From Fibrobacterota bacterium (lineage in GTDB: Bacteria > Fibrobacterota > Fibrobacteria > UBA5070): DNA of 64,000 bases. The stretch's first letter is position 1, and every line of letters begins with the position of its first letter. The DNA lies in assembly GCA_029557215.1 (NCBI GenBank), contig JAKPQQ010000222.1:18481-82480 (forward strand), given 5' to 3'. A program made the position numbers and the translations under genes. The notes below the pieces were generated by a model. It was not told the DNA's origin, made no database searches, and was given only the letters and a program-made list of their open reading frames with translations. This document shows positions 1,215 through 60,548 of the stretch, piece by piece.

Positions 1215-1874
1215 TCAGGCCTTGCCGGAGATCTTGCTGACGCAATCCGGACAGATTCCGTGCGAGACCTTGGAACCTCCGTGCTCCTGGATGTACTGCT
1301 CGATCGTTTCCCAACCGCCTTCGTCGTTGCGGATCTTGCGGCACCAGGCGCAGACGGGCACGAGGTTGCGCAATTCCTGGATCTCTTCGCGGGCCCGGCG
1401 CAGCTCCAGGTGCGTGCGGACGCGGGCCAGCAGTTCTTCCGGCTGGAACGGCTTGCCCACGTAGTCGACCGCCCCCGCCTTGAACCCCTTGACCACATCC
1501 TCCGTGCTGGTGCGCGCGGTGATGAAGATCACGGGAATGTTCCTGGTCTCGGAACCGAGCCGCAGCACGGAGCAGGTCTCGTAGCCGTCGATCCCGGGCA
1601 TGTTGACGTCCAGGAGGATCAATCCGGGATGCGCTTCCTTGGCCAGCCGGTTGGCCACCACGCCGTTTTCCGCTTCCATCACCTCGTATCCGTCCTGCTC
1701 CAGCACACCGCGAAGGAGCATGCGGTTGAACTCGAGGTCGTCGGCCACCAGGATGAGTTCCTTCGACACATCCGCCCCCGAAGCACAGGACGCTGCACCC
1801 CCGCCCGACAGGGGTGGCGTTTCTTGGAATTCCGCGGATGGTTCGCTGTCGGACATTCGAGGAAAGTATCCCAT
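1215..1874 (-). CDS. Response regulator: REC domain plus C-terminal Cys-rich module (VCAWCRKIR...HGICPDC)
   Basis: ORF 1215..2111 trimmed to internal ATG (M80) because the N-terminal 79 codons overlap the divergent uvrA start and look non-coding; receiver motifs [27 protein letters not shown]; the C-terminal CxxC-x20-CxxC segment is a module I recall from delta-proteobacterial signalling proteins. Confidence 0.7.
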
Positions 1875-1923
1875 TTCGAATCGCGCAAGGACGAAGCCTT
1901 TCGAGGTTCGGCTTTGTATATTA

Positions 1924-1939
1924 CTGCTCAATTGAGCAG
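1924..1939. promoter_or_regulatory. Perfect 16-bp palindrome CTGCTCAATTGAGCAG in the RR/uvrA divergent intergenic region; candidate operator (CTG-N10-CAG, SOS-box-like)
   Basis: Read directly from sequence, ~40 bp upstream of the uvrA-fusion ATG at 1978. Confidence 0.35.
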
Positions 1940-1977
1940 AAATTTGTCTGCCATTCCGGAGAGGTCGGCTTTCGCCC

Positions 1978-7368
<5,391 letters not shown>

Positions 7369-7461
7369 GCCTTCCACGGCGCCCGGAGCGTCCATGCGCG
7401 GGTCGCCGGACCGGGAACGGTTTGTGGGTTCTTCCGTTTGTAGGTACTATGCAGGGTACGC

Positions 7462-9765
7462 ATGGAGTTCCCGCTTCCGGAAATCGACATATCGCTGCAT
7501 CCAGGGCTCGTGCCCTCCGGAAGGTGTCCGTTGTCCGGGCGCATCCTTTGGACGCGACCGGAATGGAACACCGACCTGCCCCACTACCAGAACGAGCTCC
7601 GGGTCCTGGCTCCGAACCTGATCGTGGCGCGTTCGCGCGGGTTCATCTACGGCGAAGACACCCTCGCCTACATCCGGCGGTTCGAGAAGCTGCTCGCCGA
7701 GTTCGCTCCCGGCGGCGAAAAGATCTGTTTCATCGAGGACTGGACCGGGATGACCGGCGCCGACACGCTCGCCCGCCGTTCCTACGTCTCCTACCACGTG
7801 CAGCACTCCGATCGCTACCACGGGGTGTCGTTCTTCGGGCTCAACGCCATGACGCGGATGCTGGTGACCTTGAGCCGGCAATTGTCGGCGGTGCCCTTTC
7901 CGCTGGAGACGGGCGGCGACTACGCCGAGGCGATGGACAAGATCCTGCGCATCCTCGGCGCGAAAAAAGGCGAGTTCCAGATCCGCGACACCCTCGCTCC
8001 GCTCCCCCCCGTCCTCCCCCTGCCCGGCGCCATGCTGCGCGGACACGCGAGGCGGTTGGAGGAAATCTTCGGGCGCATCCCGTGGGACCAGGAGGGCGAG
8101 CCACCCAATCCTCTCCCGCCCAAGGATCCGTTCCACAATCTCGTCGCGGGTTGGATCGCGATCAAGGCCGACCTCGACGATCTGCAACGGCGCAGCGAAG
8201 GGCTGGAGCGGAACTTCCGGGCGATCATGGAATCGGCCCAGGAAGGTGTCTGGATCGCCGATTCCGCCGGACGGACGGTCTGGGCCAACGGCACCATGGC
8301 CCAACTCATGGATGTCCCGATCGCCAAGATGTCGCAGCTCAAGCTGTTCGACGCGCTCCCCTCCTCGGTGGTCCGCGAGGCGCACCAGACCACTCTCCCC
8401 GCCTGCGAGCTGCGCCTGTCGCGGCCGGGCGGCACGGCCATCTGGGTGCTCGTGGCCGCCGGACCGGTCCCGCCGGACATGGACGGGACCGGCGGGATCT
8501 ACGCGATCTGCACCGACATCACGGAACGCCGCGAATCCGAGACCGAAGTCCGGCGCCTGAACGAGGTGCTCGAACAGCGCGTCGAGGAACGGACGGCCGA
8601 ACTCGCGGCATCCAACCAAAAACTGGCCGACTCCCTGAAGGGACGCGAAGAATTCCTGGCCGCCATGAGCCACGAGCTGCGCACCCCGCTGGCGACCATG
8701 CTCAACGTGGCGGAAGCCATGCGCGCCGGCGTGCACGGAGAGCTTTCGCCGCGCCAGGACGAACGCCTCGCCCTGCTGGAGCGCAACGGCAGGCACCTCC
8801 AGTCGCTCATCGACGACGTGCTCGACCTCTCCAAGAACATCGCGGGCAACTTCGCGCTGAACCTGGAACCGACCGATCTTTCCGAGCTCGCGCGCCAATG
8901 CGTCTCGTCCATCCACGGCACCGCCGCGGAGCGAACGATTTCCGTCCATTCCGACATCCCGACCGGACCGGTGGTCGCCGACGTCGACCCGCTGAGGGTC
9001 CGGCAGATCCTGTTGAACCTGCTTTCCAACGCCTGCAAGTTCACCCCGCCCGGCTCGGCCATGGGACTGCGGCTGCTCCCCCGACCGGAAGACGACTTGG
9101 TCGTGTTCGAAGTCTGGGACCAGGGCCCGGGGATTTCGCCGCTGGTGCGGCACAAGCTGTTCCAGCCCTTCGTCCAGCTCGACAACAGCCTGGCGCGCGA
9201 GCACGGCGGCGTCGGACTGGGCCTGGCCTTGAGCCGCAGGCTGGCCCAAGCCCACCACGGCACGATCGAACTCGACGCGGAATCCCGCGAAGGAGCGGTC
9301 TTCCGCTTGACCCTCCCGTGGACGCGCGACGAGAACCAGGTCCTGACGATCGCGCGCAAGACCACCGCCATCGCCCGCAACGAATCGGTCGGGCCGATTG
9401 TCCTCCTGGTGGAAGACAACCAGGACCTGCGCGAAACCGTGGCCGAATACCTCTCGTCCGTGGGCTGGCAGGTGCATGCAGCGGCCGGAGGCCTCGAAGC
9501 CCTGTGCCTGTTCGAGACCCAGGCCTTCGATGTCGTCCTGATAGACATCCAGATGCCGGGCATGGACGGGCTGGAAACGATCCGGCGGCTGCGCACCACC
9601 CCCGCCGGCAAGGCGGCGAAGATCGTGGCGATGTCGGGGCTGGCCTTTCCCGAGGACAAGGAACGGGCGCTCGTCGCCGGCGCCGACCTGCATTTGTCGA
9701 AGCCCGTCCGGCTGCACAGCCTGGTGGACGTGCTGTCCGGATTCGCGAGGGCGGTCGGTAGCTGA
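7462..9765 (+). CDS. Hybrid sensor histidine kinase: unrecognised ~190-aa N-terminal domain, PAS, HisKA, HATPase_c, REC
   Basis: 767 aa; H-box AAMSHELRTPL, G-boxes GGVGLGLAL, C-terminal receiver VLLVEDNQDLRE..DIQMPGMDG; N-terminal segment with CPLSGRILWTRPEW shared with the HK at 58116..60548. Confidence 0.8.
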   Translation: MEFPLPEIDISLHPGLVPSGRCPLSGRILWTRPEWNTDLPHYQNELRVLAPNLIVARSRGFIYGEDTLAYIRRFEKLLAEFAPGGEKICFIEDWTGMTGADTLARRSYVSYHVQHSDRYHGVSFFGLNAMTRMLVTLSRQLSAVPFPLETGGDYAEAMDKILRILGAKKGEFQIRDTLAPLPPVLPLPGAMLRGHARRLEEIFGRIPWDQEGEPPNPLPPKDPFHNLVAGWIAIKADLDDLQRRSEGLERNFRAIMESAQEGVWIADSAGRTVWANGTMAQLMDVPIAKMSQLKLFDALPSSVVREAHQTTLPACELRLSRPGGTAIWVLVAAGPVPPDMDGTGGIYAICTDITERRESETEVRRLNEVLEQRVEERTAELAASNQKLADSLKGREEFLAAMSHELRTPLATMLNVAEAMRAGVHGELSPRQDERLALLERNGRHLQSLIDDVLDLSKNIAGNFALNLEPTDLSELARQCVSSIHGTAAERTISVHSDIPTGPVVADVDPLRVRQILLNLLSNACKFTPPGSAMGLRLLPRPEDDLVVFEVWDQGPGISPLVRHKLFQPFVQLDNSLAREHGGVGLGLALSRRLAQAHHGTIELDAESREGAVFRLTLPWTRDENQVLTIARKTTAIARNESVGPIVLLVEDNQDLRETVAEYLSSVGWQVHAAAGGLEALCLFETQAFDVVLIDIQMPGMDGLETIRRLRTTPAGKAAKIVAMSGLAFPEDKERALVAGADLHLSKPVRLHSLVDVLSGFARAVGS

Positions 9766-9825: not shown

Positions 9826-10347
9826 TTGAGCACGGCATCGTCGTTGTCGCCCGCCGCCTCCCAGTTCGTGGAAAGCTGGGGATCGCTGGGCGTGCTGTGG
9901 GGCCTGAACCGCTCCATGGCCCGCATCCACGCGCTGTTTCTGGTCACCGACGAACCCGTGGAGCTGGACCAGGTCGCGAAGGTCCTGAACATCAGCCGCG
10001 GCAACGCGAGCATGTGCCTCAAGGAACTGCGCAACTGGGGAGTGATCCAGCGCGTCCACAAGCCGGCCGACCGGCAGGACTACTACGTCGCCGAACCCGA
10101 CGTGTGGACCACGTTCTTCCGCATCGCCGTGGAACGCAAGAAGCGCGAATTCGATCCGGCCCTGAACAACCTCCGACATCTTCTGTCGGAAGAGGACTTC
10201 AGCGATTCCCCCAAGACCCAAAAACGCCTGGAAGACATGGAAGACCTGTTCTCCACGGCCAACACGATCCTCGGATCGCTGCTGTCCAACGAGAAGACCG
10301 GCCGCAAGGCGGTGGGTCTGCTGAAGCGGGTCCTGCCCAAGGGCTGA
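9826..10347 (+). CDS. GbsR/MarR-family winged-helix transcriptional regulator
   Basis: 173 aa from TTG start; FVESWGSLGV...MARIHALFLV..ELDQVAKVLNISRGNASMCLKELRNWGVI resembles the GbsR HTH. Confidence 0.6.
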   Translation: MSTASSLSPAASQFVESWGSLGVLWGLNRSMARIHALFLVTDEPVELDQVAKVLNISRGNASMCLKELRNWGVIQRVHKPADRQDYYVAEPDVWTTFFRIAVERKKREFDPALNNLRHLLSEEDFSDSPKTQKRLEDMEDLFSTANTILGSLLSNEKTGRKAVGLLKRVLPKG

Positions 10348-10445
10348 CGACCGCTCCCGGCCCCGTCCGCAAGCCATCCCAGTGTCGGCAAGGACCGGAT
10401 TCCCAAAGAAATCCGAAAGAGTTCTTGCGTTTTTGGTTCAAATGT

Positions 10446-10461
10446 TTCAGTTTATACTGAA
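10446..10461. promoter_or_regulatory. Inverted repeat TTCAGTttatACTGAA inside an AT-rich promoter-like patch; candidate operator for the adjacent GbsR/MarR-like regulator
   Basis: 6-4-6 perfect palindrome ~25 nt upstream of SD aggagg of the 10487 gene; flanked by ttcaaa / tatact hexamers. Confidence 0.35.
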
Positions 10462-10486
10462 CGATCCATTTGCACAGGAGGAATCA

Positions 10487-10978
10487 ATGCGCACCAAAAC
10501 CTCGTTTCCGGACAGCGAACGAACCGGGCAGGCCGCCTGGATCCTGACCGCGCTCGGCGTCGTCCACATTCCTTTGATCGCGTTCCATTTGGCTTTCCCT
10601 ACGCTGTTCCAATGGGGTACGGAGCTGTCGGTGCTCGCCCCCGACAACCGCAACCTGTTGTGGGCCCTGCATCTTTGCGGCATCTTCTGGCTGGGCAGCA
10701 TGGGAGCAGCCACGCTGATGGAGGGTTGGCGGCGGCGGACAGGCCTCGACGAGGCCATGCCCAGGGCGTTTTGGATCTGGGTCGCCGGATTCTGGCTCTT
10801 CCGCATCGGCATCCAGATCCCGATCGAAGGGCTTGGACCCCAGAGCTTGGCCATGGTCGCCTTGCTGCTTCCGTTCCCGCTACTCTATCTGGTGGCCTGG
10901 AAGAAACTCGGCCCGGAAACCTTCGAAACGCGAGGGTTCGTCGGCGCGCGACTGCGTCCCGAAAGCTGGCTGCGCTGA
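10487..10978 (+). CDS. Hypothetical integral membrane protein (about 4 TM helices)
   Basis: SD aggagg 5 nt upstream of ATG; hydrophobic segments AAWILTALGVVHIPLIAF, LWALHLCGIFWLGSMGAA, AFWIWVAGFWLF, LAMVALLLPFPLLYLVAW. Confidence 0.55.
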   Translation: MRTKTSFPDSERTGQAAWILTALGVVHIPLIAFHLAFPTLFQWGTELSVLAPDNRNLLWALHLCGIFWLGSMGAATLMEGWRRRTGLDEAMPRAFWIWVAGFWLFRIGIQIPIEGLGPQSLAMVALLLPFPLLYLVAWKKLGPETFETRGFVGARLRPESWLR

Positions 10979-11026: not shown

Positions 11027-13504
11027 TCAGCCCTGTTCCGGATCCTGCATGGGAAAGATCGTCTCCAGCAGGTTGGCGGCTTCCGCCGCGGGAACCGGCT
11101 TGCTGAACAGGAACCCCTGGCCGTAGCGGCAACCCATCGCCCTCAGGCCGGCCAGCTGGGCCGTCGTCTCGATGCCTTCGGCGACGGCTTCCATGCCCAG
11201 GCTCTTGGCCAGCTGCACGATCGTCTTCACGATGGCCACGCGTTCGGGCGCTTCGGACATGCGCGACACGAAGGAGCGGTCGATCTTGAGCGTGTCGAAC
11301 GGGAACTGGTGCAGGTAGGAAAGCGAACTGTAGCCGGTCCCGAAATCGTCGATGGACAACTGCGCGCCCAGATCGTGGAGTTCGTGGAGCTTGTCGGTGG
11401 CCAGCGCGGTGCTCTCCAGGATGACGGATTCCGTGATCTCGAGCTTGAGCGCCTCGCCGGGGAGCCCCGTGTCGAACAGGATGGTCCGCACCTGGTCGAC
11501 GATGTCCGGCAAGGTGAACTGGCGCACCGAAAGGTTGACGGAAATGAACAGATCCTGGGCGCGCGGGCACTTGTGGCGCCACTCCACGAACTGCCGGCAG
11601 GATTCGCGCAGCACGTAGCGCCCGATCTCCACGATCAGCCCGGTTTCTTCCGCCAGCGGGATGAACACCGCGGGATTGACGATCCCCTTTTCCGGATTCT
11701 GCCAGCGCACCAGGGCTTCGAACCCGGCGACGGCACCGGTGGCGATCTCGAGGATGGGCTGGTAGTAGACGCGGAATTCCTCGCGCTCCACGGCGCGACG
11801 CAGGCTGGTCTCCAGCTGCAGATGCGCCGCGGCGAACTCGTGCATCCCCTGGTTGAACACCACATGGCGGCCCTTGCCCTGCGACTTGGCGCGGTACATG
11901 GCGGTTTCGGCGTCGCGAAGCAGATCTTCGGGATGGTCCTGCTGGCGCTCCGACACCGCGATGCCGATCGAGAGCGAAACGAAGACCTCCTGGCTGCGGA
12001 TGCGGATGGGCTGCGAGAGCCTCTGGACGATCCGCTCGGCCATGCGCGGGAACACGTTGAGGTCCTGGTAGCCTTCCATGAGGATCGCGAATTCGTCGCC
12101 ACCCAGGCGGGCCAAGGTGTCCCGGGCATGCAGGCAGTCCTCCAGCGCGCGGCCCACGGCGAGGATCAGCTCGTCGCCCGCCTCGTGCCCCAGGCTGTCG
12201 TTGATCAGCTTGAACCGGTCGATGTCCAGATGCAGCACGCCCACGTACTGGCCGCCCGGCGACTTCTGCGAACGCTGGATGGCTCGACGCAATCTGTCCA
12301 GGAACAGGGCGCGGTTGGGGAATCCCGTGAGGGAGTCGTAGAGGGCTCCCTGCATCAATTGCTCTTCGGCGCGCTTGCGCTGCGTGATGTCCTCCAGCGA
12401 ACCAGCCATGCGGTCGGGATTGCCGTCCTCCCCCGGGCGCATCATCCCGCGCGACAACACCCACCGGTAGGCCCCGTCGCTGTGCAGGATCCGGAACTCG
12501 CATTCGAAGTGCGGCGCCTGGCCCGCCAGATGCGAGGCGATCTCCTGCCTCAGAAGATCCGAATCCCTCGGGTGGACGCGGTCGAACCATTCCTCGGGTC
12601 GCCCTTCGAGCAGCCCGGCGTCCATGCCCATGATCTGGGCCCAGCGGGGACTGTAGTACATCCTCTGCTCCCGGAGATCCCACTCCCAGAGCCCGCCGTT
12701 GGACCCGGCCGCGGCCAGCGCGTAGCGTTCTTCGGATCGGCGCAGGGCGTCCTGGGTCCGGCGGCGCTTGGTCACGTCCTCGACCGTGCCCTCGTAGAAC
12801 AAGGTCTTTCCCTGCGACGATCGCACCGCATGGGCGTTCTCGCTGACCCAGATCTCCGACTTGTCGCGGCGTTTGACCCGAGACTCGAAATCCTTGACGT
12901 CGCCGTCCCGCTCCAGCTGCTCCCTGAGGCTGCGGAACGTTTCCGGATCGGCGTAGACGTCCTTGGAAGCGTCCTTCACCGAATGGATGAGCTGCATGGG
13001 GTTGTCGTAGCCCAGGATGCGGGCGAGAGCCGGATTGGCCGACAGGAACCGTCCATCCGTACCGGATTGGTAGATGCCTTCCACGGCGTTCTCGAAGATG
13101 CCGCGATACTTTTCTTCGGCGAACCGGAGCGCTTCTTCCGCGATCTTGAACCGCGTCACGTCCTGGGCCTGGAGCAGGATTCCCTTCAGATCGGGCTCTC
13201 CCAGGCTCGCGAGCACGGCTTCCACGTTTAGCCAGGTGCCTTGGGAGTGTTTCAGGCGGAACTCGCAACGAATGACGCTGCCCGGATAGGGAGCCACGTG
13301 CGACACCTGCCGCAGGACCTCCGCGGCGTCGTCCGGGTGCAGGAGGTCTTCCAGCCTCAGCTTCCGGACGGCATCCGGAGCGTAGCCGAGTTTTCTCTCG
13401 AAGGCCACACCGACATCCTTCACGTGCCCGTCCCCGTCGAGGAGGGCCCAGATCTCGGAGGTTCCCTGGAGAACCCGTTCATGGAGAGCGGTCAGGAAAG
13501 TCAT
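11027..13504 (-). CDS. PAS-PAS-PAS-GGDEF-EAL c-di-GMP turnover protein
   Basis: GGDEF (RLGGDEFAIL), EAL (EALVRW, DDFGTGYSSL, QGFLFSKP) and three PAS blocks; start taken at ATG M11 of ORF 11027..13534 (TTG at 13534 also possible). Confidence 0.85.
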   Translation of the reverse strand: MTFLTALHERVLQGTSEIWALLDGDGHVKDVGVAFERKLGYAPDAVRKLRLEDLLHPDDAAEVLRQVSHVAPYPGSVIRCEFRLKHSQGTWLNVEAVLASLGEPDLKGILLQAQDVTRFKIAEEALRFAEEKYRGIFENAVEGIYQSGTDGRFLSANPALARILGYDNPMQLIHSVKDASKDVYADPETFRSLREQLERDGDVKDFESRVKRRDKSEIWVSENAHAVRSSQGKTLFYEGTVEDVTKRRRTQDALRRSEERYALAAAGSNGGLWEWDLREQRMYYSPRWAQIMGMDAGLLEGRPEEWFDRVHPRDSDLLRQEIASHLAGQAPHFECEFRILHSDGAYRWVLSRGMMRPGEDGNPDRMAGSLEDITQRKRAEEQLMQGALYDSLTGFPNRALFLDRLRRAIQRSQKSPGGQYVGVLHLDIDRFKLINDSLGHEAGDELILAVGRALEDCLHARDTLARLGGDEFAILMEGYQDLNVFPRMAERIVQRLSQPIRIRSQEVFVSLSIGIAVSERQQDHPEDLLRDAETAMYRAKSQGKGRHVVFNQGMHEFAAAHLQLETSLRRAVEREEFRVYYQPILEIATGAVAGFEALVRWQNPEKGIVNPAVFIPLAEETGLIVEIGRYVLRESCRQFVEWRHKCPRAQDLFISVNLSVRQFTLPDIVDQVRTILFDTGLPGEALKLEITESVILESTALATDKLHELHDLGAQLSIDDFGTGYSSLSYLHQFPFDTLKIDRSFVSRMSEAPERVAIVKTIVQLAKSLGMEAVAEGIETTAQLAGLRAMGCRYGQGFLFSKPVPAAEAANLLETIFPMQDPEQG

Positions 13505-13537
13505 CGTTCTGGCATCGACCTTACCATATTTCAATCC

Positions 13538-54923: not shown

Positions 54924-56480
54924 ATGCGGCTCACAGCCTGTCTCATCGCCCGCGACGAGGAGAACGCGTTGCCTCGGTGCCTGGCCTCCCTGGGCGGCAT
55001 CGTCGACGAAATCTGCCTGCTCGACACCGGCTCGCGCGACCGCACGGTCGAGATCGCCCGCGGCCACGGCGCCGTCGTGGGTTTTCGCGCCTGGGACCAG
55101 GATTTTTCCGCCGCCCGCAACGCGTGCCTGGAACTGGCGACCGGCGACTGGATCCTGCAGATCGACGCCGACGAGGAGATCGACCCGGCCACCGTCGCGG
55201 GCCTCCGACAGGATCTGGAATCCGGTCCGCCCTGTCGGCTGGTGGACGTGGTCCTGCTCGACGGCACGGACCGTCCCGGCCTCGTGCGGCTTCCAAGGCT
55301 GTTCTCGCGCGACGGGCGCATCCGCTACCGGCGGCCGGTCCACGAATCCGTCCTGGAATCCCTCGACGACGCCCGGCTTCCGCCTCCGGCGCCGTGCCGC
55401 CTGCGGCTGATCCACCACGGCTACCGCCCCGAGATCGTGGAGAACCGGGCCAAGCGGGAACGGAATCTGTCCATCCTGCGCGCCAGCCGCGATTCGGGCA
55501 GGGCGGACGCCTACGACCTCTACAAGCTCGCCACCACGCTCCCCGCCTGGGAAGGCGGGGCGGAACGTTCCCGTGCCCTGGCTTCGGCATGGCAGGCGGG
55601 AGGCATGCAGCCGGAATCCCTCCGGGCCGAATGGCCGTGGTGGGATCGGCTGGCCCAGGCCTACGCCATGGATCTGGTGCGCCGGGGCGAATTCTCCCGG
55701 GCGCGCGATGTCGCCGCGTCCGCATCCAGCGGCGGTCGCCAATCGCCGCTGGCCCTCACCGCGCTGGCGGAGCTCCATCTGCGGGCGGGCTTTTCCGGTC
55801 CGGCGCAGGACATCGCCCAGCGGGCCATCGGCCAACTTGGCGAAGGAGCGACCCTGGTGGCCTTGGGCGGCAAGGAAGAGTCGGAACTCGAATGGATCGC
55901 CGCGCGCGCGGCCAAGGCATCCCGGATCGAGGACCGGTTCCTGCTCCATCTCGAGCGCGCCGTGTCGCTGGGCTCCCTGGAAGGACGCTGCATGCGCGCC
56001 GGCTGGAAGATCTCCCAGGAAATCAACGAAGGCTGGAAGGAACTCGACATTCTCCTGCGCTCCGACGCGCGGTCCCCCTGCGTCCTGGTCGCCGCCTCCG
56101 AAGCCGCGCGATCGCAAGGAGACCGCTCCACGTCGGACCTGCTCCTGGAGCAAGCCGCCGCCATCCCCTCCGATTCGGGACGTCTCGCGGCGACCCGCCT
56201 CTGGATGCGCTCCTGGCTCGCCGGTCGGGAACCGTCCTACGATCTCCCTCCCTTCGACATCGAAGCCGCCGCGATCCACGGATTCCTGGCCATGCTGCAC
56301 GACCTCCCCTGGAAGCCCGACCCGTTCCTGCACGTCGGGATGCTCCGCTCGACCCTGGCCGACATCCTGGAAGCGCTCCTCGGCGCCGGGCGGGAAGACG
56401 TGGTCCGCCGGTTCGCCGCGGGCGCCGCATCGCGCGACGCCGACCTCCCGGGCGTTTCCGGATTGGTGGAAGGGATCTAG
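54924..56480 (+). CDS. Family-2 glycosyltransferase with long C-terminal helical (TPR-like) extension
   Basis: 518 aa; GT-A N-terminal block LTACLIARDEENALPRCLASLGGIVDEICLLDTGSRDRTVEIA, DxD-like IDADEE. Confidence 0.65.
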   Translation: MRLTACLIARDEENALPRCLASLGGIVDEICLLDTGSRDRTVEIARGHGAVVGFRAWDQDFSAARNACLELATGDWILQIDADEEIDPATVAGLRQDLESGPPCRLVDVVLLDGTDRPGLVRLPRLFSRDGRIRYRRPVHESVLESLDDARLPPPAPCRLRLIHHGYRPEIVENRAKRERNLSILRASRDSGRADAYDLYKLATTLPAWEGGAERSRALASAWQAGGMQPESLRAEWPWWDRLAQAYAMDLVRRGEFSRARDVAASASSGGRQSPLALTALAELHLRAGFSGPAQDIAQRAIGQLGEGATLVALGGKEESELEWIAARAAKASRIEDRFLLHLERAVSLGSLEGRCMRAGWKISQEINEGWKELDILLRSDARSPCVLVAASEAARSQGDRSTSDLLLEQAAAIPSDSGRLAATRLWMRSWLAGREPSYDLPPFDIEAAAIHGFLAMLHDLPWKPDPFLHVGMLRSTLADILEALLGAGREDVVRRFAAGAASRDADLPGVSGLVEGI

Positions 56481-58115
56481 TCGGCGGCTTCCAGGACTCC
56501 GTACTTGAGGAGCCAATGCACCTGCCAGACGGCCTCCTCGCGCGATCGCCCCGCGAGGACGGCGCACAGGCGCGCGTGGTCGGACAATTTCCGTTGGCCG
56601 TGGCGCATGTTCACGACCAGGGCCGACAACAGCTTCCCGTCGGAAATCGGCATCAGATCGCCGAAGGTGGGCGGCATGGGCAGCTCGCCTCGCAGGATCG
56701 CCTCGCCCAGGGACGAAAGCCGCAGGAGGGGATCCAGATCCGGAGCGGGTTCGGCATAGTGCCTGAACGCCTCGGCGGGATCCAGGATTTCGGGATCGGG
56801 CCCGCCCCCCTTGCCCGGCACGTCCATGCGATCGGCCTCGCGACGCAGGTCTTGCCAGATTCCGGCCAGTCGTCCGACCACCGCCTTCCAGGAGAACAAC
56901 CGCTCGGCGCGTTCGCGCCCGGCGTCCCCGGACGACCGGGCCAATGCCGGATCGTCCAGGTACCTCGCGATCGCCGCGCGCAGGCATCCCGGATCCACCG
57001 CCACGCCTTGGCTTGTCGCCAGCTGCGAAAGGTTCGGCTCCAGCACCGCGCGCAAGGCGATCGCCTCCGGAGGCGGCGGCGCCCATCGCACCGGGACCAG
57101 AGCCCCGGTCGCGCCGTCCTCCACCAGATCCTTGTAGCCGTCCCACCGCGAGGCCACCACGGGAAGCCCCGATGCCATCGCCTCCACCACCGCGATCCCG
57201 AACGTCTCCTGCTGGTTGTCCACCGGCGAAACGAACACGTCGGCGGCGGCCAGCAGGTCCAGCTTCTCGGCATCTTCGATATCGGGACGGATCCCGACAT
57301 GCGCCGCCAGCCCCAGCTCGTCCACGGTCGCACGCAGGGAAACGAGGTCGCCTTCGGAACCGCCGCCGGCCAGCACGAGCAGGCGCTTGCCGACGGATTC
57401 CGACACGATCGCGCGCCACTGGTACAGCAGCGGATGCAGGTCCGCCTTGGATGCCGCAGAAAGCCTTCCGATCCACAAGGCGACCCTCGCGTCCGGGGGG
57501 ATCGCCAGCCGTCGGCGCGCCTGGTCCTTGTCGCGACGCAGGAAGTAGCGCTCGTCCACTCCGAGCGGCGCGATTTCCAGCCGGCCCCGGAATCCGCCGC
57601 CTACCATGCCCAATTGGCGTCGGAACGATTCCCGCCCGTCCCGGCTCGTGCAGATCACCGCGTCGCAGGGCCCCGTCGGCGCCGCCACGAGCCGCCTCAG
57701 CATTCCCGCCATCGACGGATCGTTCAGGCTGTGGATGGTGCCGGTCAGCGGGAAGGGCCGCGCGGCGCGGTTCGCGCGAAGCCACGCGAGCGCGCCCAGG
57801 TAGCGGCTCCAGCCTCCGCTGTGCACGACCTCCCAATCGGCGCCGGACATCGCCTCGGGAAGTTCCAGCTGCGGACGCGTCGCGATCCTTGCGACCAGAT
57901 TCCGTCCATCGGGAAGCGCCGCGATCCATTCGCGCAGGCGCCGCCCTTCGTCGACGGTCGGACAGAAGAATTCGAACCGGTCGTAGGGGCCGTGTCGCAG
58001 CAGGGCCTCCAGGAAGGTCGCGTTCGCGACGAGCCGCCCCAGGCGCAGCGAGGGTCGCGACGATTCGATGAAGGTGTCGGCGGAGGCGAAGATGCGCACA
58101 CCGGAAGAATAACCC

Positions 58116-58126
<11 letters not shown>
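56477..58126 (-). CDS. Family-4 (GT1-fold) glycosyltransferase with C-terminal extension
   Basis: 549 aa; FVSPVDNQQETFGIAVVEAMASGLPVVASRWDGYKDLVEDGATG is the classic GT4 E-x7-E nucleotide-sugar motif region; start overlaps the upstream HK stop by 11 nt. Confidence 0.7.

Positions 58127-60548
<2,422 letters not shown>

Follow-up and report, generated by a model that had tools for sequence, protein, structure and literature searches.

A predicted STAS-like domain with a cysteine loop as a candidate input module of two hybrid histidine kinases from a Fibrobacterota bacterium

We analyzed a stretch of 64,000 nucleotides (hereafter the window) from the genome of a Fibrobacterota bacterium (contig JAKPQQ010000222.1 of assembly GCA_029557215.1), which has a G+C content of 65.8% and encodes two hybrid histidine kinases, HK1 and HK2 (Table 1). 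According to a structure model, the domain shared by their N-terminal regions is a divergent form of the STAS (SpoIIAA-like) fold and not a new fold. Judged by hidden Markov models (HMMs) and by a connector motif that follows the domain, HK1 and HK2 are both members of a family that lacks a curated model. With moderate confidence, we propose that this family is a cytoplasmic STAS-fold input module of (hybrid) histidine kinases, in which a Cys site in one of two domain subtypes, type A, would sense a thiol-reactive or ligand signal.

Shared N-terminal domain and its family

In both proteins, HisKA, HATPase_c, and REC exceeded the Pfam cut-offs by a wide margin, which identifies HK1 and HK2 as hybrid histidine kinases, and the H-boxes SHELRTPL (HK1) and SHEIRTPL (HK2) were read from the sequences. 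Ahead of the transmitter, approximately 250 residues of HK1 and 400 residues of HK2 were left unassigned by Pfam. A preliminary description of the window had noted that both proteins begin with the motif C-P-x2-G-x4-T-R-P-E-W, and the motif is exact in HK1 (C22-PLSGRILWTRPEW, read as C22-PLSG-RILW-TRPEW) and in HK2 (C10-PVTGMPVMTRPEW, read as C10-PVTG-MPVM-TRPEW). The two N-termini are also homologous and colinear, as had been claimed: BLASTP returned a single alignment of 154 amino acids with 21% identity (E = 7e-6). The landmarks of the domain are C22-P-L-S-G…T-R-P-E-W35, D93, R104, and DY-AE-A in HK1, and C10-P-V-T-G…R-P-E-W23, D83, R96, and DY-EK-A in HK2. Some details of the preliminary description had to be revised. 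The domain spans approximately 150 to 165 residues (around amino acids 10–177 in HK1 and 1–171 in HK2) instead of approximately 190, and the end assigned to it in HK1, position 8100, falls inside the connector. The conserved block Y-x-E-x-YD-x-S-x3-G occurs literally in HK2, but HK1 reads I-x-F-x-ED-x-T-x3-G, and the pattern written as DY-x-A has the true spacing DY-x2-A. As described, the domain is soluble and N-terminal. The highest Kyte–Doolittle mean over 19 residues was 1.37 in HK1 and 1.57 in HK2, in both cases within REC or HisKA, indicating that there are no transmembrane helices, and no PAS, GAF, or Cache profile matched the N-terminal regions.

HMMs built from homologues only, with the window sequences and the proteins P0001–P0003 left out, matched HK1 at amino acids 20–166 (E = 5e-27) and HK2 at amino acids 7–160 (E = 5e-38), and matched nothing else among the 455 six-frame open reading frames (ORFs) of the window. 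A second region of HK2 was matched by the type-A model at amino acids 176–311 (E = 1.5e-9) and by a model of the other subtype, type b, at amino acids 181–298 (E = 2.4e-13). These independent matches indicate that HK2 contains two copies of the domain and HK1 one. BLASTP found no alignment between HK2 copy 1 and copy 2 or between HK1 and HK2 copy 2, and the duplication in HK2 is visible only by profiles and in the structure model. The second copy, a degenerate and Cys-less type-b domain, retains PEW, the Gly before helix 1, D-Y-S, and the Arg, and is without CPxTG and DY. This copy (amino acids 167–332) and the connector in both proteins had been overlooked in the preliminary description. The layout of HK1 is thus A-connector-PAS-kinase-REC, and that of HK2 is A-b-connector-kinase-REC.

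A word-indexed homologue search with HK1 amino acids 1–213 found no relatives; with HK2 amino acids 1–350 it found three, of which P0003 carries the motif in tandem. The same kind of search with an alignment of seven domain copies (A1) returned nothing, a miss of sensitivity, since P0002 and P0003, which are in the database, were missed as well. An exhaustive HMMER search with the A1 profile against 1.84 billion representatives of 50%-identity clusters retrieved 1036 cluster representatives at E ≤ 1e-3 and 755 at E ≤ 1e-10. That two unrelated N-termini resemble each other by chance around a short shared motif, a reading to which the identity of just 21% could lend something, is therefore next to inconceivable: it is excluded by the pairwise E-value, by the independent and window-specific HMM matches (E ≤ 5e-27), and by the size of the family.

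Copy numbers, subtypes, and architectures were counted in the best 150 of the 1036 matches. In these proteins, the domain begins within the first few dozen residues and is repeated, with 106 proteins carrying two copies and 39 carrying three; the maximum, six, was reached in one protein. The arrays were A-b in 82 proteins, A-A-b in 25, A-A in 17, and A in 10, plus rarer forms; the array of HK2 (A-b-connector) is the commonest form and that of HK1 (A-connector) is the minimal one. The general plan of the module is one to three type-A domains, zero or more type-b domains, and the connector, followed by (PAS)-HisKA-HATPase_c-(REC/Hpt). A scan of 55 members detected HATPase_c in 41, HisKA in 37, REC in 27, PAS in approximately 23, Hpt in 11, and GAF in 2, and none of the 55 contained a GGDEF, EAL, MCP, PP2C, or σ54 module. 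Because 12 of the 14 members without HATPase_c were shorter than 531 amino acids, these short members are probably truncated ORFs. Among the 55 members sampled, the module occurs specifically in histidine kinases. The named members derive from metagenome-assembled genomes (MAGs) of Desulfobacterales and other "Deltaproteobacteria," Spirochaetales, Fibrobacterota, Auribacterota, and other mostly uncultured lineages. Database records label them simply "PAS domain S-box protein," "response regulator," or "hypothetical"; the N-terminal half has either no annotation or a name taken solely from its PAS or REC parts. A genome scan with a five-sequence alignment and one narrow peptide pattern returned five loci and has little bearing on the taxonomic range.

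Predicted fold and comparison with STAS proteins

Searches of the N-terminal pieces (HK1 amino acids 1–213 and HK2 amino acids 1–350) against Pfam and NCBIfam at E ≤ 10 gave noise only, with no match reaching threshold; DUF7793 (PF25056) did not match HK1 or HK2 even at this E-value, and neither did any STAS-clan model. The domain had been called unrecognised, and it is so in the sense that no curated HMM library names it in the two proteins, but its modelled fold is a familiar one, STAS/SpoIIAA-like. AlphaFold2, supplied with a 44-sequence alignment of two-domain N-termini (A2), produced a model of HK2 amino acids 1–337 with a mean predicted local distance difference test (pLDDT) score of 88.5, which superseded a prediction for amino acids 1–350 from the single sequence (pLDDT 34.8). 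The model contains two similar α/β domains, each with a short N-terminal hairpin, a PEW turn, three strands, and then the order α-β-α-β-α-β-α; the order of strands and helices in the type-b domain equals that in domain 1. Ten-residue blocks of the type-A domain mostly had pLDDT values of 87 to 97 (95 for residues 11–20), with lower values at the N-terminus (67), in residues ~121–140 (80 and 67), and in the linker block 161–170 (63).

A Foldseek search against the Protein Data Bank (PDB) ranked STAS structures first, among them 2q3l (DUF3478, "SpoIIAA-like fold"), SpoIIAA (1thn_B, 1th8_B, and 1h4z), the anti-sigma-factor antagonists 4hyl and 4qtp, RsbV (6m36), RsbS (6jhk), TM1442 (1vc1), and SLC26 STAS domains. 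Single-domain STAS targets were matched with a probability of 0.99 to 1.0 and a target-normalised template modelling (TM) score of 0.61 to 0.77, and full-length SLC26-type transporter chains with a probability of 0.72 to 1.0 and a much lower target-normalised TM score. No PAS, GAF, or Cache structure was among the 50 PDB matches listed by Foldseek. Matches in BFVD, which holds viral models, included proteins annotated as STAS, DUF4325, and DUF7793. Both modelled HK2 domains have the central β-sheet and the four helices in the order β-β-α-β-α-β-α-β-α that define the STAS fold.

Profile comparisons at the level of the family agreed weakly with this assignment, at borderline scores. The type-A consensus matched DUF7793 with E = 1e-5 and 26.0 bits, exactly the cut-off of 26, over profile positions 18–107 of 113. 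The type-b consensus matched PF11964 (SpoIIAA-like) over 103 of 106 positions with E = 1.5e-3 and 19.7 bits, where the cut-off is 25. HK1 and HK2 themselves matched none of the curated STAS-type profiles. Among individual members, 6 of 44 matched DUF7793 (E ≤ 0.1) and one matched SpoIIAA-like, and the family profile matched the STAS part of the Vibrio stressosome protein RsbR (7o0i_B) weakly (E = 0.063). A match to a known family, which the preliminary description had set as the observation that would contradict it, was thus obtained for the fold, and the sequence profiles remained at the borderline.

The module shares its α/β fold and strand–helix order with the STAS/SpoIIAA-like domains of SpoIIAA, RsbV, RsbS, the C-terminal domain of RsbR, SLC26/SulP transporters, and 2q3l. 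Landmarks in common with the RsbR STAS domain are the Gly that ends the strand before helix 1 and D-x-S…G-x-S/T at the junction of strand 3 and helix 2. By contrast, the module has approximately 25 extra N-terminal residues and an extra N-terminal strand; these residues carry an arm, CP[VI][TS]GL…PEW, with the invariant Cys loop. The module also occurs N-terminally in histidine kinases and in tandem arrays trailed by a dedicated connector motif, whereas known STAS domains are single-domain proteins or C-terminal. Two curated families come closest. DUF7793 is the nearest sequence model to type A, and a viral protein annotated with it matches our model structurally, but the match omits the first ~46 residues of the type-A consensus, that is, the Cys loop, PEW, and the first strands; in open-access text, we found no paper that mentions this family. 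PF11964 (DUF3478), to which the type-b consensus aligns almost in full, is also the family of the best structural match, 2q3l. Proteins of PF11964 are small and stand-alone. In open-access text, we found no description of N-terminal tandem STAS arrays with a Cys loop and a connector. What is known here is the fold; what is new is a sizeable uncurated branch of the STAS superfamily with additions of its own, namely, the Cys arm, the differentiation into types A and b, and the connector.

The fold is that of anti-sigma-factor antagonists, and the main rival explanation is a built-in partner switch. The STAS-like domains would then not be ligand sensors but would dock on a GHKL ATPase (the HATPase_c domain of their own protein or of a partner), in the way that SpoIIAA, RsbV, and RsbS bind SpoIIAB, RsbW, and RsbT, and would gate autophosphorylation, docking possibly being controlled by phosphorylation of a Ser/Thr at the start of helix 2. 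Single STAS-domain proteins are targets of GHKL-type Ser/Thr kinases (PMC9239204). The full-length proteins sampled were essentially all HATPase_c kinases with no other outputs, which is unusual for a generic sensor domain, and in one homologue a canonical single-domain STAS gene lies immediately upstream. The Thr of the RsbR "VDT" motif, which we take to be the phospho-acceptor, corresponds to family position 91 in the alignment. This position is Ser/Thr in 76% of the type-A copies and in 68% of those of type b, including a Ser in the type-b copy of HK2; however, it is Asp in HK1 and Pro in HK2 type A, and a Ser/Thr at a helix N-cap is also explicable structurally. Unlike SpoIIAA and RsbV, the type-A domains of HK1 and HK2 therefore have no phospho-acceptor Ser/Thr, and both proteins carry the domain fused to a kinase, not as a stand-alone protein of ~110 amino acids beside a GHKL Ser kinase or PP2C. 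The neighbours of HK1 and HK2 (UvrA-UvrA, a MarR-like regulator, FabI, and GT4) include no partner-switch genes, and no RsbW-like kinase or PP2C phosphatase was found beside HK1, HK2, or the homologues examined. Partner switching would also leave the invariant Cys loop and the helical connector unexplained, the latter being the usual route from sensor to DHp. We regard this explanation as unlikely.

Cysteine loop, connector, and proposed signal input

The 346 aligned copies fell into two subtypes, 194 of type A and 152 of type b. Type A is characterized by a C-P-[VI]-[TS]-G-L loop followed by P-E-W-T, Gly40, Gly112, Tyr145 (in the DY motif), and Ala152. In type b, the Cys loop is deleted and Tyr145 is replaced by Leu or Phe, and Trp23 (79%), Gly50 (100%), Asp83, and Arg95 are retained. 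That the Cys loop and the DY motif disappear together suggests a single functional site, and the cluster of type-A residues around the near-invariant Cys is the best candidate for a receptor site. The preliminary description had proposed both the Cys and the Trp of the motif as a redox or ligand site. For the Cys such a role is plausible, and its conservation is exceptional: it is present in 142 of 144 first copies aligned at that position and is never replaced by Ser or Ala. The Trp, however, looks structural; it is conserved in both the Cys-bearing type A (97%) and the Cys-less type b (79%) and lies in a short turn of helix in each of the two domains of the model, and this points to a structural rather than a ligand role.

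Two other readings of the loop were rejected. A lipoprotein or sortase-like interpretation of CPxTG is contradicted by the lack of a signal peptide or transmembrane segment and by the presence of the motif in internal second copies, and a zinc knuckle by the presence of one Cys only of the would-be CPxCG and by the absence of a second knuckle.

Downstream of the last copy, the family has a connector with the consensus …DELLQFLGSINWDQDG…SHPFKPVFDAIALIKSDLDELL…, which leads into a coiled-coil and then into PAS or HisKA. Its pattern is GxI/AxWDxxG … D/HPF/L … IK/RxD (family form GxINWD…HPF…IKxD), and it matches no Pfam family. A strict regular expression located the connector immediately behind the last STAS-like copy in 89 of the 134 proteins, HK1 and HK2 being two of the 89, and its place was always between the array and the next helix. 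The connector of HK1 (…LEEIFGRIPWDQEGE…DPFHNLVAGWIAIKADLDDL…) continues into the PAS domain, and that of HK2 (…LNVMLGALAWDQGDE…DHPLAEVAEAIRLIREDYRAVL…) is directly continuous with the HisKA helix.

A single, strictly conserved Cys followed by Pro in the input region is a likeness to thiol-switch kinases and to proteins with heme regulatory motifs; there is no homology, and these proteins serve as working analogues only. The Cys-Pro of the CP[VI] loop might be a thiolate ligand of the heme-regulatory type, or a metal ligand shared across the kinase dimer, in which case the module would signal the status of heme, iron, or a metal and not thiol oxidation. Cys-Pro signatures form the core by which heme regulatory motifs are defined, and they are also able to act as thiol/disulfide switches (PMC2742820). 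When gapped rows are counted, first copies have the Cys in 92%, the Pro in 84%, and Val/Ile in 85%, and HK2 has further Cys residues in the segment D-C-T-G-C (amino acids 111 and 114). In the HK2 subfamily, C111 is invariant and C114 usual, and the two flank the type-A-specific Gly113; the wider family mostly has Leu there. Going by the sequence, these extra residues could give HK2 a multi-Cys site. A Cys-Pro dipeptide is nevertheless a weak signature. Heme regulatory motifs usually lie in flexible segments, whereas residues 11–20 of the model have a pLDDT of 95. Moreover, no second His or Cys ligand is conserved across the family, and the neighbourhoods examined contain no heme or iron genes. 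We thus consider both heme or metal ligation and a report of heme, iron, or metal status distinctly improbable.

Slightly less probable still is that the array is a passive scaffold that only dimerises or spaces the kinase, with the Cys serving for packing and sensing located in PAS or elsewhere. Many members do have PAS or GAF in addition, and the type-b copies show that the fold tolerates the loss of the Cys loop. On the other hand, nothing else that could serve as an input domain separates the array from HisKA in HK2 and its subfamily. A Cys needed for packing alone should alternate with Ala, Ser, or Val, yet it is kept in 142 of 144 copies, and the conserved polar and Gly residues specific to type A suggest a functional site.

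We therefore return to the Cys site of type A as the sensing element of an input module. That the array is the input of the kinase is suggested by its being the sole domain upstream of HisKA in HK2 and its subfamily and by the conserved helical connector to the signalling helix. The analysis establishes homology, fold, family size, modular architecture, and the pattern of conservation; the input role itself, the route of transmission, and the chemistry of the Cys are what we infer. In the proposed mechanism, the type-A domain would perceive a cytoplasmic signal at the Cys loop together with Gly40, Gly112, and Tyr145 of the DY motif. The likeliest signal would be thiol oxidation or modification, or the binding of a thiol-ligated ligand, and the favoured chemistry is a thiol-based switch (oxidation, persulfidation, or other modification). 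The resulting change would pass through the type-b domain, where present, and through the helix-loop-helix-like connector to the coiled-coil and on to PAS or DHp, where it would set the autokinase activity and the output of the phosphorelay.

Several points weigh against this interpretation. STAS domains are better known as protein–protein switches than as small-molecule sensors. The STAS assignment of HK1 and HK2 rests on the model and on family-level profile matches at or below the Pfam cut-offs, and the Foldseek E-values were modest (best 1.5e-4), which is attributable to the comparison of a two-domain query with one-domain targets. In mean-field direct-coupling analysis of the 194 copies of type A, noise prevented the Cys arm from being placed; within this noisy signal, a few pairs (8-140 and 21-148) hint at a position close to strand 5 and helix 4. 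The architecture census spans the best-scoring 150 of the 1036 matches, and the neighbourhoods of four other family members had nothing in common and gave no functional clue.

A bolder combination of these ideas would be a new class of cytoplasmic sensor on the STAS fold, in which the invariant Cys-Pro loop of the type-A domain is the receptor, as a redox switch or a heme or metal thiolate, and the array gates the GHKL domain of its own protein as an intramolecular switch similar to SpoIIAA–SpoIIAB. We put this forward tentatively and hold it to be unlikely as a whole.

Genomic context and implications

Table 1. Features of HK1, HK2, and adjacent genes in the window
Feature	Position	Strand	Details
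HK1 gene	7462..9765	+	Hybrid histidine kinase, 767 amino acids
HK1 type-A STAS-like domain	7489..7992	+	Sole copy in HK1; family HMM envelope amino acids 10–177
HK1 connector motif	8038..8223	+	Amino acids 193–254; connector HMM (87 homologues), E = 2e-8
HK1 transmitter	8212..9732	+	PAS amino acids 251–358, HisKA 395–459, HATPase_c 509–620, REC 647–757; Pfam scan
HK2 gene	58116..60548	-	Hybrid histidine kinase, 810 amino acids
HK2 type-A STAS-like domain	60036..60548	-	Amino acids 1–171; independent HMM, E = 5e-38
HK2 segment D-C-T-G-C	~60207..60218	-	C111 and C114
HK2 type-b STAS-like domain	59553..60050	-	Amino acids 167–332, degenerate, Cys-less; type-b HMM, E = 2.4e-13; type-A HMM, E = 1.5e-9
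HK2 connector motif	59325..59525	-	Amino acids 342–408; connector HMM, E = 1.2e-14
HK2 transmitter	58152..59327	-	HisKA amino acids 408–473, HATPase_c 520–634, REC 685–799; Pfam scan
UvrA-UvrA ORF	1978..7368	+	1796 amino acids
MarR/HTH_27 winged-helix regulator gene	9826..10347	+	
ORF after the MarR-like gene	10382..10978		198 amino acids
PAS-PAS-PAS-GGDEF-EAL protein	11027..13534	-	
GT4 glycosyltransferase gene	56477..58126	-	

The UvrA-UvrA ORF lies upstream of HK1 with a gap of 93 bp, and the gene for the MarR/HTH_27 winged-helix regulator follows HK1 on the same strand after 60 bp. The UvrA ORF consists of two UvrA-like proteins head to tail, the second starting near amino acid 960; in Pfam, UvrA_inter and UvrA_DNA-bind were found in the first half only, together with several ABC_tran stretches. 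The ORF after the MarR-like gene had no Pfam match, and a large PAS-PAS-PAS-GGDEF-EAL protein is encoded convergently near HK1, in a region rich in signalling genes. Very long wrong-frame ORFs, such as one of 2833 amino acids at 1260..9761 (+) across uvrA and HK1, are artefacts of the G+C content of 66%.

HK2 lies between fabI and the GT4 glycosyltransferase gene, with the start of the latter overlapping the stop codon of HK2 by 11 bp. A Fibrobacterota MAG (locus L001, 3409..8994) has the same gene order, purA-fabI-HK2-GT4, with identities of 94% for PurA, 85% for FabI, 57% for HK2, and 74% for GT4, which assigns the window to Fibrobacterota or its vicinity; as judged from these values, HK2 evolves much faster than its neighbours (57% versus 74–94%). 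Promoter and terminator scans around HK1 and HK2 found none. Among four homologue loci, one has an NtrC-type regulator downstream, and in a single case (locus L008, 6458..6796) a single-domain STAS gene with matches to Pfam STAS and STAS_2 lies directly upstream of the family member P0017.

Cytoplasmic histidine kinases without a recognisable sensor domain are a standing annotation gap, and a fold (STAS) and an architecture (type A, type b, and connector) are now assigned to a module of more than 1000 protein clusters. The single Cys at this position in 142 of 144 first copies is a sharp handle for testing. If the Cys is the receptor, the module would represent a new STAS-based mechanism of signal input; docking of the array on the catalytic domain would instead make the module a fused partner switch. 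Should a Cys-loop receptor and an array gating its own GHKL domain both prove true, partner switching and the two-component phosphorelay would be joined in one polypeptide. Under either reading, the family merits a curated model.

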